Below are positions 80 through 6,517 of a DNA stretch of 7,066 bases, one piece after another. Within the stretch, counting starts at the first letter, position 1; the number at the start of each line of letters is the position of its first letter. A program made the position numbers and the translations under genes. The notes beneath the pieces are model-generated. The model was not told where the DNA came from and did no database searches. It saw only the letters and a program-made list of their open reading frames with translations. This stretch comes from a virus (taxonomy: Duplodnaviria; Heunggongvirae; Uroviricota; Caudoviricetes), in the IMG/VR virus record IMGVR_UViG_2534682060_000010. One strand, written 5' to 3'.

Positions 80-93
80 TAGCTTTCCTTGTA

Positions 94-191
94 AGACGCT
101 CTCAATCGCATCCTGACACAAAACAGTACCTGACCTTATAGTTGACCTGAAGAGTCCGCTTAACTCGTTACAGAGCGATTGAAGAGGTCTG
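94..191. repeat. Structured repeat, copy A: left arm 94-124, unique 35-nt core 125-159, right arm 160-191
   Basis: Arms are near-identical to copy B (27/31 and 30/32 by manual alignment). Right arm is an imperfect reverse complement of the left arm, including a perfect 9-bp CTCAATCGC/GCGATTGAG pairing. Confidence 0.8.
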
Positions 192-378: not shown

Positions 379-936
379 ATGAGAGACGCAGAATTTAGAG
401 CGATGCTTCAGGCATCGAGACAACGTAACAGATACAACTCCTACAGCTACACAGACACCCCCACCAGCTACGAATTACCCAAGCTCACCCAAAAAGAACG
501 CAAAGGCATTGACGAAGTAATTCGGGCAATTACACCGAGGAACCGTTACATGCCAACACGCAAAACAACAAAGAACAGCATCAGGAATTATCTGGCTAGC
601 TTTGACAGCTACGCGCAACTACCGAGCAAGCTTGATGATATTTTTATTGGATTTTGCAGAAGCGAGGGTCACCAGAAATACAATCAGAAGGTTTTTTATT
701 TACTGCGAAGTCTTGATGAAATTAACTCAGCCACCGTGACAAATCATCTTCAGCGTCAAGCAACCAGACTTAGCCATGAATTACCAAGCGATAAATATTG
801 CGCTTTGCTTGCTGTAATGTGCGCAAAGTTAATTGGTGTTGTTGAGCATCATATTGCCGCTGGAAATATTGAGACAATGGAAAACGAGCAACCAGATTTC
901 GAGTTTGACCCGTATTTAGTTACAGAGGAATTTTAA
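379..936 (+). CDS. Hypothetical protein, 185 aa, basic N-terminal region
   Basis: Long ORF in AT-rich DNA; GAGGG 364-368 upstream of ATG 379; in-frame TGA immediately upstream; stop TAA abuts the next start. No motif recognised. Confidence 0.8.
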   Translation: MRDAEFRAMLQASRQRNRYNSYSYTDTPTSYELPKLTQKERKGIDEVIRAITPRNRYMPTRKTTKNSIRNYLASFDSYAQLPSKLDDIFIGFCRSEGHQKYNQKVFYLLRSLDEINSATVTNHLQRQATRLSHELPSDKYCALLAVMCAKLIGVVEHHIAAGNIETMENEQPDFEFDPYLVTEEF

Positions 937-1215
937 ATGAAGAAACACACTTTGACCCGTATTTCAGAGGAAGCTTTTAACGAGCTTACCAGAATTAAAC
1001 GAGCTACTAACTTGCCTCATCAAACTGTTATGCAGCTTGCAATCTCTAAAGTGGTCACTGAGTCGGATTTACTTAGATATCCAGTCTCTAAAGGCCGCAA
1101 ACACATCCGAATTACTCAGGACGCTTTAGATACTTTGAAGGGACTAAACAACTTTAAAATTGATATTGCCCGTCTAATGAGTATCAAAATTCACAAATTA
1201 GCGATGGAGGTTTAA
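937..1215 (+). CDS. Putative ribbon-helix-helix DNA-binding protein with two RHH-like repeats, 92 aa
   Basis: Starts directly after the previous stop (TAA 934-936, ATG 937). Residues ~5-38 (TLTRISEEAFNELTRIKRATNLPHQTVMQLAISKV) and ~56-88 (HIRITQDALDTLKGLNNFKIDIARLMSIKIHKL) each follow a beta-strand/helix/helix pattern typical of Arc/CopG/MetJ-type folds. Assignment is by pattern only. Confidence 0.75.
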   Translation: MKKHTLTRISEEAFNELTRIKRATNLPHQTVMQLAISKVVTESDLLRYPVSKGRKHIRITQDALDTLKGLNNFKIDIARLMSIKIHKLAMEV

Positions 1216-1593: not shown

Positions 1594-1917
1594 ATGAACA
1601 ACTTCCCATTACAAATTTTCGTTGATAACGACGCCGCTCTGATGATTCAGGCTTTCACTGATGCAGGTGTGGCAATTGATTTTGACAGGCTGTTAAAGCT
1701 AGTTGCTGAGAACTCAGAAGTAATTGAAGATTTTATTCAGGGAATTGAAACTGGTGAACCACGTTTTATGTTTCCCGTTACCGACTCAAACATGAAAAGG
1801 CTTGTTATCGAAGAAACGAATAAATACAGCATTAGCCCTGAAAAATATCTCAAGGCGGCTATAGTAATTTTGTATAGCGACAGTATTTTGGTGACGGATT
1901 CGAAGGTGGTGCATTAA
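1594..1917 (+). CDS. Hypothetical acidic protein, 107 aa
   Basis: AAAAAGGAG 1575-1583 precedes ATG 1594. By my count 17 Asp+Glu against 9 Lys+Arg. No motif recognised. Confidence 0.75.
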   Translation: MNNFPLQIFVDNDAALMIQAFTDAGVAIDFDRLLKLVAENSEVIEDFIQGIETGEPRFMFPVTDSNMKRLVIEETNKYSISPEKYLKAAIVILYSDSILVTDSKVVH

Positions 1918-1982
1918 TGGTATTGGTGATTATCTGTTTTGTATTGATTGGTATGATTGCAGGTGCATCTATTAAAGTATAA
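1917..1982 (+). CDS. Candidate micro-ORF encoding a 21-aa hydrophobic peptide (MVLVIICFVLIGMIAGASIKV), not in the supplied ORF track
   Basis: ATG overlaps the upstream stop (TAATG at 1915-1919); AAGGTGG 1902-1908 lies 8 nt upstream; peptide is almost entirely hydrophobic with one Lys near the C-terminus; stop TAA 1980-1982. Confidence 0.3.
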   Translation: MVLVIICFVLIGMIAGASIKV

Positions 1983-2006: not shown

Positions 2007-2046
2007 TTGACAAATAACCTTGAGCATGACATAATTGTATATATAT
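2007..2046 (+). promoter_or_regulatory. Sigma70-like promoter P2, paralogous to P1
   Basis: -35 TTGACA 2007-2012, 17-nt spacer, -10 CATAAT 2030-2035, followed by TGTATATATA 2036-2045. Confidence 0.6.
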
Positions 2047-2210
2047 GGAGAGCAATTCTCCTTGAATTAAACTATTAATCATCTCTACATCGATGATAAC
2101 TATATTCTGAATTGGAAAGTGCAATGCTTTTCGCTACATGACCTCTTATATAACTTGAGAGGTCATCTCGAAAAGTCTTTGTTCATTTGAATCCTTTAGA
2201 TGCTACCTTT

Positions 2211-2238
2211 GCCCTAATCATGAGTTAGGGCTTTCTTT
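2211..2238 (+). terminator. Intrinsic-terminator-like hairpin T1 inside the long leader
   Basis: Stem GCCCTAA (2211-2217) / TTAGGGC (2225-2231), 7-nt loop, then TTTCTTT (2232-2238). Confidence 0.45.
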
Positions 2239-2307
2239 AAGAGTTTTTAAACAGAGCTTTTAAAGAAAGTTTTCCTGAAACTTCGTTAACGTTATAAGCA
2301 AACCTCC

Positions 2308-2340
2308 AAAGCCCTTCACAGATTACGTTTAGGGCTTTTT
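2308..2340 (+). terminator. Weaker terminator-like hairpin T2, related to T1
   Basis: Stem AAAGCCCT (2308-2315) / AGGGCTTT (2331-2338), 15-nt loop, T-run 2336-2340. Shares the 3' half TTAGGGCTTT with T1. Confidence 0.3.
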
Positions 2341-2456
2341 CAATTCATAAAAGCACACTTGGCAAGTTCTTGTTCAGTCAGACTCTTCACCTCTGATTGC
2401 TGAGTGTGCTTCTACGAATTTGAAAATAAGCAATTACACTAAAGAGGTGAAAAATA

Positions 2457-3197
2457 ATGTCTATCCGTGATGAACATGAAGCGATTGTTGATAGAAAACC
2501 TTGTGCATATGATTTGCATTTTACTGATGAAGGAGATGAGTATGCACATATGAAACCTTATCACAAAATTATTGCCAAGCTTGCAGATGAAGAGGCCAAA
2601 AAAGAAAGGCTACGAAAGATTGTTCCAGCCAATAATCTTGAATTTATCAATCCTGAGCCTCTGGAAATGACTGATGTTTGCAAGACAGAAGCTCTGATTG
2701 CACTTGAGAGGAGGTACTATCCACTACTAAAAGAGCAGCGCATCAAGCTTGATAATGCTTATGATGTTGTCAAGAACTTCGAAGAAACTCAGAAACCTTC
2801 AGAATATGATATTGAATATGAGCTTAAGACAAACCCGTTTATCTATTACGAAGGAAATTACAACAATGGTTTCGGTACAGCAAGAGAGAATGTTCCAAAA
2901 GTGCTTCAAAGTATTCCTGACGGTTTTCGATTAATAGATGTCAGACAAGCTCCACGTGGCACAGGCTCATATATCCTGATGACTAACAAAACAGACGAAG
3001 AGATTATTCAGTTGGTTGAGGCTAATTTGACTAAGCATTACTCCGATAAGCTGGACAAGTTAAAGCAAAAGCTTAAAAAAGAGCTTGATACTATGAAAGA
3101 GCTTGTTAGTGAATATGAGTCGCAGAAGAAGGTTGCTATGCAGGGTGATATTGAGCAGCTTACTAAGATTTCTCAGAAATACAGCAAAGCACTTTGA
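2457..3197 (+). CDS. Hypothetical protein, 246 aa, charged and probably coiled-coil at the C-terminus
   Basis: AGAGGTGA 2442-2449 upstream of ATG 2457; long ORF. No Walker or catalytic motif seen. Confidence 0.85.
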   Translation: MSIRDEHEAIVDRKPCAYDLHFTDEGDEYAHMKPYHKIIAKLADEEAKKERLRKIVPANNLEFINPEPLEMTDVCKTEALIALERRYYPLLKEQRIKLDNAYDVVKNFEETQKPSEYDIEYELKTNPFIYYEGNYNNGFGTARENVPKVLQSIPDGFRLIDVRQAPRGTGSYILMTNKTDEEIIQLVEANLTKHYSDKLDKLKQKLKKELDTMKELVSEYESQKKVAMQGDIEQLTKISQKYSKAL

Positions 3198-3431: not shown

Positions 3432-3478
3432 AAAAATTGGTTGGGTATATGAGATAGGTTCTATCGAATCTATAGTAC

Positions 3479-3519
3479 GGGAGAGATTATCGAGTGGCAT
3501 CGGTAGCTCTCCCTTTTTT
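3479..3519 (+). terminator. Intrinsic terminator
   Basis: Stem GGGAGAG (3479-3485) / CTCTCCC (3507-3513), 21-nt loop, then TTTTTT (3514-3519). Ends 20 nt before the tape-measure start codon. Confidence 0.6.
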
Positions 3520-3539: not shown

Positions 3540-5588
3540 ATGAGCAAATTTACAGTTGATAGTTTTATTGTTGAGCTAGGCTTCAATGAAAACGTTATTA
3601 AGGGACTGCAAAGAGTTGAAAAGGCAGCTTTGCAGTCAGCACAAAGAATTGAAAAGAACCTAAATAAAGGTTTCAGGATAAATACAAAACAGCTTGATAG
3701 TAATTTGACAAGTTCTTTAAAGTCAATGGAAGGAAAAATTAATAAGACCTTTGACCGTCTGGAAGCTAGAGCAAAAAATACTAAAGCTTTCCGTTTCACA
3801 AGTCAGGTTAATGATGCTATTAATCCTCCAAAACAATCAAAGCCAAGAAGAGTTACTAGTGACCGAGCTATTACAGCGGCTTATTCAGCGAATATGACCA
3901 AACTGAAAGGTCTTAACCCAATTGTCGAGAAATACATTAAGAGTCAGTTTTACGCATTAAGTAGTAAAGCTGGTCAGATGGATAACACCAAGTTTAATGA
4001 AGCCCTTGCTAAACTAAATTCAAGTGTACGAGAAGCAATCACTAAAGCCAGAGGTCATACATCCACCAGCATTAATAGTGACAAAGCAGCTAGTTCTCTT
4101 GATAGTCTGTCTTCAGCAGCATTTAGAGCAGCAGGTGCATTTATCAGCTTTCAGGCTGTACTATCCGCTTATCAGCGAGTACTGGAAGTTGGTTTACAGC
4201 GTACATCATCGGAAAGAAGTATTGATTTCGTATTCGGTGACCAAAGTACACAGGTTAAAAAGTTCATTCAGGATTTAACTCAAGTCACGGGTATGGACAC
4301 GACCGAAACACAAGCTCAGTTTGCCTCATTCGGTGCATCTGCAAAGAATACGATGGGTCTTGAAGGCTCAGAGGAATTATTTAAAAACTTAACTGGATAT
4401 GCCCGTCTAATGGGGCGTTCAGATGAGCAGATTCAAAGAGCATTAACCGCAGTATCGCAGATGGCTTCTAAGGGGCAGGTGATGTCTGAGGAGTTGAAGG
4501 GGCAATTATCTGAAGCTTTACCGGGTGCTACTCAGGCATTTGCAAAGGCTTTAGGTCTGACTGAAAAACAGCTTTTCGATAAGATGAAAAATGGTGATGT
4601 TAAAGCCTCTGATGCACTCCCTAAGTTTGCTAAAGAACTTGGTGCACAGATTAATTCAAGAGGTGGCTGGAAAGCTATTCAGGACTCTACGCAGACAATG
4701 TTAGGGAACTTAAAGAATACCTGGAATAACTCATTAACGGATATTTTCAAAGGTTCTGAAAATGGTCTGCAAGATTTTACACGAAGCTTAACAACGCTTT
4801 TAAATAGTTTAGATGGAAGTGGTAAAACATTAGGTGAAAGTCTTGGTGGCTTGATGAGTGATATGTCATATGGTATCGATAACCTGACTTATATTAGTTA
4901 CAGGGTGAGAGCGTTCTTTGATGAGGTGACATTAGCTTATCGTGGTTTAACCGATGAACAAAAGAAAGTTGTTGATGCTTTAGGTTCTGGCTTGATTAAT
5001 AGTTTAAAAGTCTTGGCTGGTGTTATTGCTGTAAATAAAGTTGTTGGTGTAACTAGAAGTATTTACGGGCTTATGACTGCTATCACAAGATTAGGTCAGG
5101 TCGCTGATACTACAGCAGATAACGTAAATAAAAAGAACGGGAAACCATCAAGGTTTAATCTTGGGAATATGCTATTAACTGGTAGTGCAATCTATGCAGG
5201 TTATGAGAGATTAGCTTCTACGCCTGAACGAATGGAAGCACAAGCTAAATTACCAGAGCTAGCTAAAGAGTCTGGACTTAAACCCGCTTTCACTATGGAT
5301 GATGTTAAAGGGTGGTTTAATAGTGCTGCCATGAATCTTGCTAACTTCCAGCATCCAGAATTAAACAACATTAAGCAAGATTCAGCATTAACGAGTGCAG
5401 ATATCCAAAGCCTGAGAGATGAAATCTCCGCTTTGAGTAAACGTATTCAGGAGCCTGTGAAAGTTTCACTTGGTGGTGAAGTTGCCATTAAACCAGATGA
5501 AACCAGCTTTATGACCTTTAGCGGTAATATCTACGACCAATACGCAGAAGCTACGCTATTAAGTTCATCATTCCCAGAAGATGATTGA
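3540..5588 (+). CDS. Phage tail tape-measure-like protein, 682 aa
   Basis: GAGGTG 3524-3529 upstream of ATG 3540. Internal segment KGQVMSEELKGQLSEALPGATQAFAKALGLTEKQLFDKMKNGDVKASDALPKFAKELG fits, from memory, the conserved tape-measure domain pattern. Long helical low-complexity N-terminal half and a hydrophobic segment LINSLKVLAGVIAVNKVVGV. Confidence is high that this is a gene, moderate for the product. Confidence 0.7.
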   Translation: MSKFTVDSFIVELGFNENVIKGLQRVEKAALQSAQRIEKNLNKGFRINTKQLDSNLTSSLKSMEGKINKTFDRLEARAKNTKAFRFTSQVNDAINPPKQSKPRRVTSDRAITAAYSANMTKLKGLNPIVEKYIKSQFYALSSKAGQMDNTKFNEALAKLNSSVREAITKARGHTSTSINSDKAASSLDSLSSAAFRAAGAFISFQAVLSAYQRVLEVGLQRTSSERSIDFVFGDQSTQVKKFIQDLTQVTGMDTTETQAQFASFGASAKNTMGLEGSEELFKNLTGYARLMGRSDEQIQRALTAVSQMASKGQVMSEELKGQLSEALPGATQAFAKALGLTEKQLFDKMKNGDVKASDALPKFAKELGAQINSRGGWKAIQDSTQTMLGNLKNTWNNSLTDIFKGSENGLQDFTRSLTTLLNSLDGSGKTLGESLGGLMSDMSYGIDNLTYISYRVRAFFDEVTLAYRGLTDEQKKVVDALGSGLINSLKVLAGVIAVNKVVGVTRSIYGLMTAITRLGQVADTTADNVNKKNGKPSRFNLGNMLLTGSAIYAGYERLASTPERMEAQAKLPELAKESGLKPAFTMDDVKGWFNSAAMNLANFQHPELNNIKQDSALTSADIQSLRDEISALSKRIQEPVKVSLGGEVAIKPDETSFMTFSGNIYDQYAEATLLSSSFPEDD

Positions 5589-5746: not shown

Positions 5747-6517
5747 ATGATTTACACTAATCAGCTTCGTTACAGTGGCAAAGATGGTGTTTACTTCCAT
5801 CTACAAGGCCAACCAGATAATTTCTTGTCACTATCAGCTACTGAGAACATGGAATTTGATAGCCCTATGATGGTTACCACTCAAAATATGCAATCAGGGC
5901 AGGCTGTCACAGATAATGTAATGCGTTCACCCAGAACAATTACTATTAGTGGTGTCGTTGTAGTTGGCTATGAAGGAAGCTTATTATTGACTCGTCAAGG
6001 GCAATTAGTAGAAAACTTCATTGATACTCTGGAAAGCTGGAGAGACCAGAAACAGATTATTTCGGTCATCTGTAAAGATGGTATCAAAATTGACGATTCC
6101 ATTATTACAAACTTTAAAGCCTCTAAAGATGTTGGAATTTCTAATGGCCTAAGAATCCAGCTAACTTTTCAGGAAATTAACTTTAAAGCTATCGTAGGGC
6201 AAACTGATATTTCATCTGCAACTGGAAAGACCGCTACCACGAATGATGGCGGTGCTACCAGTAAAAAGAACACCGGAAACACTACAACGAGCCTTGGAAG
6301 CCCTATGCTGACCTGTAAAGAGCTTTTTAGCTATTCGGCAAGTGAGTTATCAGATGAAGCGCTAAAAGCCCGTGTAACGTGCTCTAAGAGCGTTAGCGTT
6401 AAAAATGGTGAGAGCACCTTCTCAGATGCCGCTAATGAGCAAGCTTCAAAGGTGCTTAAGCCGGGTAATGCTCTGCGAAAGTACTCTGTGAACCCTAACA
6501 AGAAGGGCACTTATTGA
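5747..6517 (+). CDS. Hypothetical protein, ~256 aa; possibly a tail component by position
   Basis: AAAGGAG 5733-5739 sits 7 nt upstream of ATG 5747; the track's TTG start at 5726 lies upstream of the Shine-Dalgarno and is less likely. Placement right after a tape-measure gene suggests a distal tail protein, but I recognise no motif. Confidence 0.8.

Follow-up and report, generated by a model that had tools for sequence, protein, structure and literature searches.

A conserved structured leader with tandem terminator-like hairpins and a putative Shine-Dalgarno-masking loop precedes tail genes in a satellite-like island of Escherichia coli

The window analyzed here is a viral DNA sequence of 7,066 nucleotides (nt) (Caudoviricetes; IMG/VR record IMGVR_UViG_2534682060_000010). 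Within it, a stretch free of open reading frames (ORFs), at positions 2036-2456, separates a promoter, P2, from a gene for a protein of 246 amino acids (aa). An earlier note on this DNA, made from its letters alone, had proposed either a discrete small RNA (sRNA) or control of the 246-aa gene through its leader. These two options are not mutually exclusive. We consider it probable that the stretch is a double-locked regulatory 5' leader which also yields terminated RNAs of about 200-300 nt, and that the tail-gene operon under its control comprises the 246-aa, 69-aa, tape-measure and Dit-like genes. This reading is built on the comparison of related sequences, which supports the promoter, structure on the + strand, the terminator hairpins and pairing between an anti-Shine-Dalgarno (anti-SD) loop and the Shine-Dalgarno (SD) sequence of the 246-aa gene. 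The stretch is a real, conserved and unclassified regulatory RNA of a known general kind, and its layered design is unusual. The features on which the argument depends are listed below, with loops in square brackets.

1983-2000, + strand: upstream element ATGTTA-N6-TGTTAA, 6 bp before the -35 box of P2.
2007-2035, + strand: promoter P2, with TTGACA at 2007-2012, a 17-bp spacer with TG, and CATAAT at 2030-2035.
2047-2061, + strand: 5' stem-loop GGAGA[GCAAU]UCUCC, -6.2 kcal/mol, at the predicted 5' end of the transcript.
2078-2097, + strand: hairpin A2 (AUCAUC / GAUGAU), z = -5.9.
2113-2133, + strand: invariant core UGGAAAG(G)U[GCAAU]GCUUUUCG, a hairpin of 7-8 bp that shares its GCAAU apex with the 5' stem-loop.
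2127-2133 / 2169-2175, + strand: optional outer helix of hairpin B.
2138-2166, + strand: hairpin B, ATGACCTCT (2138-2146) paired with AGAGGTCAT (2158-2166), -23.4 kcal/mol, z = -7.0.
2211-2238, + strand: T1, intrinsic-terminator-like, GCCCUAA/UUAGGGC (hairpin 2211-2231) followed by UUUCUUU, -11.4 kcal/mol, detected by a terminator scan.
2229-2271, + strand: hairpin C2, -19 kcal/mol, z = -4.6.
2308-2340, + strand: T2, AAAGCCC (2308-2314) paired with GGGCTTT (2332-2338), reading AAAGCCC...GGGCUUUUU, -11.9 kcal/mol, z = -4.2.
2337-2426, + strand: hairpin E (arms 2337-2365 / 2397-2426), an imperfect stem of about 26 bp, -31 kcal/mol, z = -5.0.
2386-2394, + strand: anti-SD sequence UUCACCUCU at the apex of hairpin E, complementary to 2443-2451.
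2443-2451, + strand: SD region AGAGGUGAA of the 246-aa gene, partner of 2386-2394.
2457-3197, + strand: the 246-aa gene, the first gene behind the leader.
3479-3519: a further, strong terminator-like hairpin, GGGAGAG...CTCTCCC plus TTTTTT, between a 23-nt motif described below and the tape-measure start at 3540; conserved in other island types.

The ORF-free stretch has matches in 471 of 5,426 complete E. coli genomes, or about one in eleven. They show a modular pattern, in which the first ~210 nt occur most widely and later modules are swapped between the chromosomal islands that carry them. Copies in Citrobacter, E. albertii and IMG/VR were found via the adjacent 107-aa protein, and a search with the exact 20-nt core added 13 stretches from IMG/VR and at least 80 from metagenomes (99 matching). 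Depending on the analysis, 98-103 unique leader versions were available, with 281-480 nt from start site to ATG; the sets comprised 98 variants for structure, terminators and ORFs, 103 for the promoter, 81 for anti-SD/SD pairing and 56 for the upstream region. An ORF follows the stretch in 101 of 103 unique variants and encodes 234-246 aa in the 11 loci checked.

The absence of ORFs asserted in the earlier note stands for ATG starts, none of which opens an ORF of more than six codons within the stretch in the window, but two 23-codon ORFs with TTG or GTG starts are present on the + strand (2007-2078 and 2119-2190). Neither is conserved. Among the 98 variants we found no conserved peptide on either strand and no peptide common to more than 28 of them, and a hidden small gene was therefore rejected. 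Nor does the stretch belong to a described RNA family. The covariance-model search proposed in the earlier note returned none: no Rfam 15 model, including the C4/CI model RF01695, matched the window at E values up to 10, the best scores in the region came from eukaryotic families (E of 0.17 or worse, far below threshold), and nine related islands gave no Rfam hit inside the islands at gathering thresholds. No tRNA or tmRNA was found, and neither the ORF-free region nor the 246-aa protein had a match in 50,697 phage records.

Folding of region 2042-2470 (429 nt) was compared with 100 shuffles. On the + strand the region folds at -125 kcal/mol versus -85 ± 5 for the shuffles (z = -7.3), none of which was as good; the - strand gives z = -4.6. 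Individual elements range from z = -2.1 to -7.0, with the exception of the isolated core hairpin, which folds weakly better than its shuffles (z = -1.5). The earlier note had described the 5' stem-loop (2047-2051/2057-2061) and hairpin B (2138-2146/2158-2166), both of which are present; it had overlooked hairpins A2 (2078-2097) and C2 (2229-2271), the invariant hairpin (2113-2133) and the anti-SD apex.

Variation among related sequences supports the main helices. Across the 98 variants the promoter, the 5' stem-loop, the invariant hairpin, hairpin B, one to three terminator hairpins and hairpin E are retained. Over 24 variants, three of the six pairs in the 5' stem-loop are changed on both sides (for example, GGAAGA/UCUUCC and GAGAG/CUCUC). 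In hairpin B, four of eight pairs are changed on both sides. Within alignment A3, which covers the core hairpin and hairpin B, 99.8% of cells are paired, compared with 38-65% in slid controls, and none of 500 shuffles reaches its covariation score. Other island types carry a different small hairpin in the A2 position, a case of module replacement. Covariation is uninformative on the fold of the core because the core never varies. Searching with the core biases its apparent invariance, and we checked this with sequences anchored otherwise: the core is invariant in 12 sequences from protein or BLAST searches, Citrobacter included, and all 12 IMG/VR leaders located through the promoter pattern contain it exactly. 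According to the pair tables, 17-22% of paired cells are G-U, which become A-C mismatches on the opposite strand; the core hairpin holds both G-U and U-G pairs and hence forms only on the + strand. Since G-U pairs fail on the other strand, the structure is that of a + strand RNA and not of DNA or of an antisense transcript. A structured + strand RNA behind a promoter, as the earlier note had envisaged, is thus borne out, and it is conserved across related genomes. Just 3' of hairpin B (window 2183-2196 and homologous positions), a short UUCA/CAUU repeat occurs in one to four copies between variants.

P2 agrees with the consensus at 11 of 12 positions and was the best promoter-like site of the window in a promoter scan. 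It is a near-consensus sigma-70 site with a TG extension, and it is conserved: TTGACA is kept in 101 of 103 unique variants, and the -35 box and spacer are invariant in a 101-sequence profile. By its sequence P2 looks like a constitutive sigma-70 promoter, with transcription predicted to start near 2042. It also appears to be a paralogue of another island promoter, P1. Both have a TGTATATATA stretch after the -10 box, and the upstream element ATGTTA-N6-TGTTAA, the columns of which are nearly invariant in 56 unique upstream sequences, recurs at the same distance (6 bp) before the -35 box of P1, at 275-292. The common element and the TGTATATATA stretch suggest that P1 and P2 probably answer to the same regulator, and ATGTTA-N6-TGTTAA looks like an operator or activator site common to the two promoters. 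An inverted copy of the element lies just downstream of P1 (340-357).

The hairpins T1 and T2 are located where the earlier note had seen terminator-like structures, and both look like intrinsic terminators. T1 is one of only three terminator-like sites in the scan. T2 has an A-tract, a GC stem and a UUUUU tract running to 2340; it was missed by the scan because its loop exceeds 8 nt. Each of the 98 variants keeps one (33 variants), two (63) or three (2) GCCC/GGGC hairpins with a T run behind them; measured from the predicted start, their ends have medians of 194 and 294 nt. T2, which accounts for the 294-nt median, is present in every variant, and two of its nine pairs are changed on both sides around an invariant GCCC/GGGC core. 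T1 belongs to module C and is missing along with it in about one third of variants. In both terminators the U-tract doubles as the beginning of a larger hairpin further downstream, C2 in the case of T1 and E in that of T2. The 5' arm of C2 reuses the final GGC of the T1 stem together with the T1 U-tract, and in some variants U-to-C changes in C2 convert G-U to G-C pairs. Between P1 and T1 the scan found no terminator-like site, in agreement with the remark that the upstream operon has no terminator of its own, so T1 and T2 would also end that operon. In one locus (L075) the interior of the T2 hairpin is inverted (CCCTAAACATAATCTGTGAAGGG versus CCCTTCACAGATTATGTTTAGGG) and the hairpin is maintained.

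Hairpin E, which begins inside the U-tract of T2, takes in the long-range pairing of the earlier note. The pairing of AAGCACACT (2351-2359) with AGTGTGCTT (2403-2411) described there is real, but it is only the middle of the ~26-bp hairpin and not an isolated long-range pairing. In the alignment, 96.3% of cells of hairpin E are paired (35-49% in slid controls), and 7 of 16 pairs are changed on both sides. The stem measures 22-29 bp in nearly all of the 98 variants, with a median energy of -34 kcal/mol. Such a length agrees with the size of an RNase III substrate (about 20 bp or more of near-continuous double-stranded RNA), and hairpin E is a candidate for one.

The apex of hairpin E is complementary to the SD region of the gene that follows. 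This complementarity amounts to 9-13 contiguous pairs in all 81 unique variants and to at least 11 pairs in 63 of them, and the anti-SD sequence always lies in the apex. Shuffled SD regions give a median of 7 pairs and reach at least 11 in 1.8% of cases. Moreover, apex and SD change together over at least three sequence families. In other island types an apex UCUUCUAAGUGU goes with an SD ACACUUAGAGGA, or an apex CCUCUUCUAAG with an SD CUUAGAAGAGG; in Citrobacter the apex AUUCACCUC goes with the SD GAGGUGAAU, which is the window pair in shifted form. Where the SD side carries a single change, the change is a transition that preserves wobble pairing (for example, AGGGGUGAA and UUUAGAAGAGG). The match reaches past the SD into gene-specific flanks, and in the L013-type island the apex has no match at the ribosome-binding site of the tape-measure gene. 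We take a match that co-varies and is specific for the adjacent gene as direct evidence of a cis interaction between loop and SD, which would mask translation initiation. The apex of hairpin E thus seems to mask the ribosome-binding site of the 246-aa gene, and this predicted translational masking is the second, better-supported layer of control.

A contig of an E. coli assembly, AGIA01000101.1, is identical to the window. In complete genomes the window is the core of an ~11.5 kb chromosomal island, which spans about 3900-15700 in locus L002. Of 5,426 complete E. coli genomes, 531 match some part of the window, and carriers include E. coli O55:H7 DEC5B, AR434 and JNEC-KY203. The insertion sites of the island vary (between yciI and tonB, or within yecE), and its gene order is constant across sites, with a large serine recombinase at one end:

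Variable cargo, then about 2 kb that is poor in ORFs and has repeats spaced by 95 bp, then P1.
After P1, genes of 185, 92, 66 and 107 aa, then P2 and the ORF-free stretch.
After the ORF-free stretch, the gene of 234-246 aa, then a gene of ~69 aa, then the tape-measure gene (PF20155).
At the end, the Dit-like baseplate gene (PF21821), then the large serine recombinase on the opposite strand.

In the window, the 246-aa gene is accordingly followed by the 69-aa gene, the further terminator, the tape-measure gene and the Dit-like gene. The Dit-like gene has 86-90% DNA identity to Felixounavirus phages, and the tape-measure protein is related to its Felixounavirus counterpart. The island is without capsid or terminase genes. 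Its gene content (small size, a large serine recombinase, no capsid or terminase) is consistent with that of satellites of the PLE kind, and the island has the look of a phage satellite, or of a tail-interference element, that has not been described before. Among described systems, PLE of Vibrio cholerae comes nearest; a literature search found no description of such a Felix O1-type E. coli satellite element.

The mechanism that we infer, including the start site, actual termination, the opening signal and the link to helper infection, is as follows. P2, as a strong sigma-70 promoter, would start an RNA near 2042 that folds in order into the 5' stem-loop, the small hairpin, the invariant GCAAU hairpin and hairpin B. 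Most polymerases would then halt at T1 and/or T2, leaving RNAs of about 195 and 295 nt, and polymerases arriving from the upstream operon would be terminated there as well. In transcripts that read through, the apex of hairpin E would pair with the SD of the next gene and block the ribosome. Terminators and mask together would hold the operon off at the levels of both transcription and translation, and a third terminator (3479-3519) would act just before the tape-measure gene. The locks would presumably be opened on infection by a Felix O1-like helper, by antitermination, by opening of hairpin E or by an RNase III cut. Three terminators in one operon suggest processive antitermination, a route we infer from this arrangement, and the length of hairpin E suggests RNase III processing.

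Several points weigh against this reading. The start site, the 3' ends and the efficiency of the terminators are predictions, and the pairing of apex with SD would form a pseudoknot, which is beyond what folding tools score. The sequences compared are related, and the independent lineages behind each covarying pair may number only three or four. Searches of Pfam, PHROGs, NCBIfam and PADLOC revealed no antiterminator and no RNA-binding protein among the island proteins, and no boxA was found in the leader. A pure cis lock leaves unexplained why the 20-nt core is invariant, stem included, and why the terminators come only after about 160 nt of conserved structure. Finally, the satellite status of the island is itself deduced from gene content.

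One alternative refines the leader reading by making it a processive-antitermination cassette, in which the GCAAU hairpins serve as boxB (nut) sites or as sites like put of HK022, and a factor encoded by helper or island lets RNA polymerase ignore T1, T2 and the tape-measure terminator. Two identical five-base GCAAU apices do lie upstream of three successive terminators, and the + strand of the island has no other hairpins of GCAAU type. The 5' stem-loop is also of boxB size, with a 5-bp stem and a 5-nt loop that is mostly GNRA plus one base, but a reading as a CAA triloop closed by a G-U pair is equally good. The GCAAU loop differs from known boxB loops, and its binding by any factor is hypothetical. 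Moreover, a search of 2036-2456 for boxA (CGCUCUUA-like; YGCTCTTWA with at most one mismatch) gave no match, and no N, Q or other antiterminator family was detected, the six small island proteins having no match in Pfam, PHROGs or NCBIfam. We therefore treat the cassette as a tentative proposal. Still somewhat less likely, in our view, is a wider version in which the leader is the switch by which undescribed Felix O1-dependent satellites sense their helper. The GCAAU hairpins and the core would dock a phage or satellite factor, this factor would bypass the three terminators and/or open hairpin E, and the terminated 200-300 nt RNA of uninfected cells would itself act in trans, perhaps by titrating a protein or by regulating host or phage mRNAs.

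It is equally doubtful that the product of P2 is first of all a stand-alone trans-acting sRNA of about 195-295 nt, ending at T1 or T2 and working by base-pairing with mRNAs of the helper phage, the host or the island, or by protein titration, with the lock as a secondary matter. Such an RNA would account for a strong promoter followed by U-tailed terminators in all variants and for the conservation of the 5' 160 nt, which is the widest in the leader and extends to islands with differing downstream modules; the invariant core of 20 nt might serve as a seed or bind a protein. A parallel exists in SviR, an intergenic sRNA from an ORF-free region of the V. cholerae satellite PLE, which is transcribed from one start site to a rho-independent terminator and gives species of 160, 210 and 300 nt (Dunham, Angermeyer and Seed, bioRxiv 10.1101/2022.04.08.487710). 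However, SviR is helper-induced whereas P2 looks constitutive, and the core is predicted to be paired and not free. No convincing target, and no conserved single-stranded seed with a conserved target, was found in a Felixounavirus genome or in the island operon: the best duplex of the core in the Felixounavirus genome (-23.3 kcal/mol, versus -21.0 for the next) lies deep in coding sequence, and complementarity of at least 12 nt to the island's own operon is not conserved. Individual matches were rejected as chance. They include, all in the Felixounavirus genome, a 14-nt match of the core (30575-30588), which is no energetic outlier and falls in the 3' part of a coding sequence; an 18/18 match of the hairpin E apex (81455-81472), seen in a single variant only; and a 23/26 match of the window apex with E = 0.88. 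A perfect 15-mer between leader and own operon (2067-2081 / 4993-5007) was likewise set aside, occurring in only 3 of 66 loci. A DNA-level element, such as a replication origin or a packaging or recombination site, is highly improbable. The stretch is ORF-free and rich in inverted repeats, satellites require sites of this kind, and the - strand also folds better than chance (z = -4.6), but the stems keep G-U wobbles that fail on the opposite strand (the invariant core holds two), a conserved promoter is directed into the region, and there are no iterons. Better candidates for such sites lie elsewhere, in the ORF-poor 2 kb with 95-bp-spaced repeats to the left of the window and in the 23-nt motif.

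The double-locked leader that we favor can be compared with several known systems. In phage lambda, the PR'-6S RNA-tR' leader is read through by Q, and the pL leader runs through nutL and an RNase III hairpin to N. The leader described here is similar in that a strong promoter would yield a short terminated RNA ahead of late or structural genes, small 5' hairpins lie upstream of terminators, and a long hairpin of RNase III type stands just before a ribosome-binding site and would affect translation. It differs in having no sequence similarity and no detected boxA, N homologue or Q homologue, and in its GCAAU apex, tandem terminators and long hairpin with an anti-SD that co-varies with the SD. 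PLE, whose helper is a lytic myovirus, has a large serine recombinase at its boundary. Its SviR is conserved in all members of the satellite family (bioRxiv 10.1101/2022.04.08.487710). Like SviR, the leader comes from an ORF-free satellite region with a single start and a terminator and would give several RNA species, of 160-300 nt for SviR and of about 195 and 295 nt as predicted here. The host and the helper are different, however; SviR is phage-induced and has mapped trans targets, whereas P2 looks constitutive and no targets of the leader were found in the Felixounavirus genome or the island operon, and the leader RNA physically heads the next operon, the ribosome-binding site of which it is predicted to mask.

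In the CI RNA of P4 and the c4 RNA of P1 and P7 (RF01695), an RNA derived from a leader controls its own operon by pairing and premature termination. The resemblance lies in a leader-derived RNA of a satellite or phage that would act on its own operon; the present leader, in contrast, has no RF01695 match, and no repeated complementarity of the seqA/seqB/seqC type was found in it. A parallel to the loop-SD pairing is provided by SD-sequestering hairpins in general and by the repZ/repA pseudoknots of IncI-alpha and IncB plasmids, in which a hairpin loop pairs near a ribosome-binding site tens of nucleotides downstream and sets translation. Here too a loop would pair with ribosome-binding-site sequence some tens of nucleotides downstream to form a pseudoknot. 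The plasmid pseudoknot, however, promotes translation and is itself blocked by an antisense RNA, whereas the loop of the leader covers the SD itself and repression is expected.

As for the neighboring genes, the six small proteins of the island have no family match in Pfam, PHROGs, NCBIfam or PADLOC. The 185-aa protein (window 379-936) has a weak sequence match in PDB over residues 40-80 (4eqq, E = 9e-4); this entry is the superinfection-exclusion lipoprotein Ltp, which acts on tape-measure proteins. An AlphaFold2 model of the 185-aa protein, built from a shallow alignment, was unusable (pLDDT 46.7). The 92-aa protein (window 937-1215) resembles, by eye, two ribbon-helix-helix repeats and has otherwise only weak DndE hits; it may be a DNA-binding regulator of P1 and P2. 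A hydrophobic ORF of 21 codons, MVLVIICFVLIGMIAGASIKV (window 1917-1982), overlaps the stop of the 107-aa gene (TAATG) and is present in about 10 of the 56 upstream variants. A type I toxin-antitoxin system based on this ORF was rejected, given this limited occurrence and because no complementarity to the RNA was seen.

The 23-nt motif reads TATGAGATAG(G/A)TTCTATCGAATC, with the palindrome GATAG-N3-CTATC inside it. The island has two copies (window 3448-3470, and on the - strand at 6489-6507 of locus L002). In the complete Felixounavirus genome GEP101 the motif is also found only twice, at 71980-72002 and 72063-72085, both inside the 1.7 kb gene-free stretch of that genome. The motif may be a cis site common to phage and island, used for packaging, for replication or by a phage regulator. 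A relative of it, an insert of ~29 nt (ATGAGGATAGTCTTCTATCCGAAGTCTAT), differs in position among islands. It lies between the -10 box of P2 and the 5' stem-loop, that is, at the extreme 5' end of the leader, in loci L036, L043, L052 and others, and just before the tape-measure gene, past the 3479-3519 terminator, in loci L078, L084 and L121.

The gene set and the cis motif held in common with Felix O1-type phage suggest satellite activity or tail interference aimed at a genus used in biocontrol and typing, and the leader is the obvious control point of the phage-like genes of the island. It also offers a compact example of layered RNA control, in which tandem terminators would be combined with a co-varying anti-SD loop in a hairpin of RNase III size. 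As an entry in RNA databases it would be a new family, for which the ~100 natural variants suffice to build a covariance model.

A second structured element is present in two copies per island (window 88-191 and 1447-1572), with size classes of 101 nt and 124 nt. Its ends (AGACGCTCTCAATCGCAT ... GTTACAGAGCGATTGAGGAGGTCT) are conserved and mutually pairing, 42 unique versions of it are known, and it is absent from Rfam. The first copy stands behind a - strand promoter (292-263) and folds better on the - strand; the two copies could give rise to mutually antisense RNAs. The 5' end of the element is boxA-like (CGCTCTCAA).

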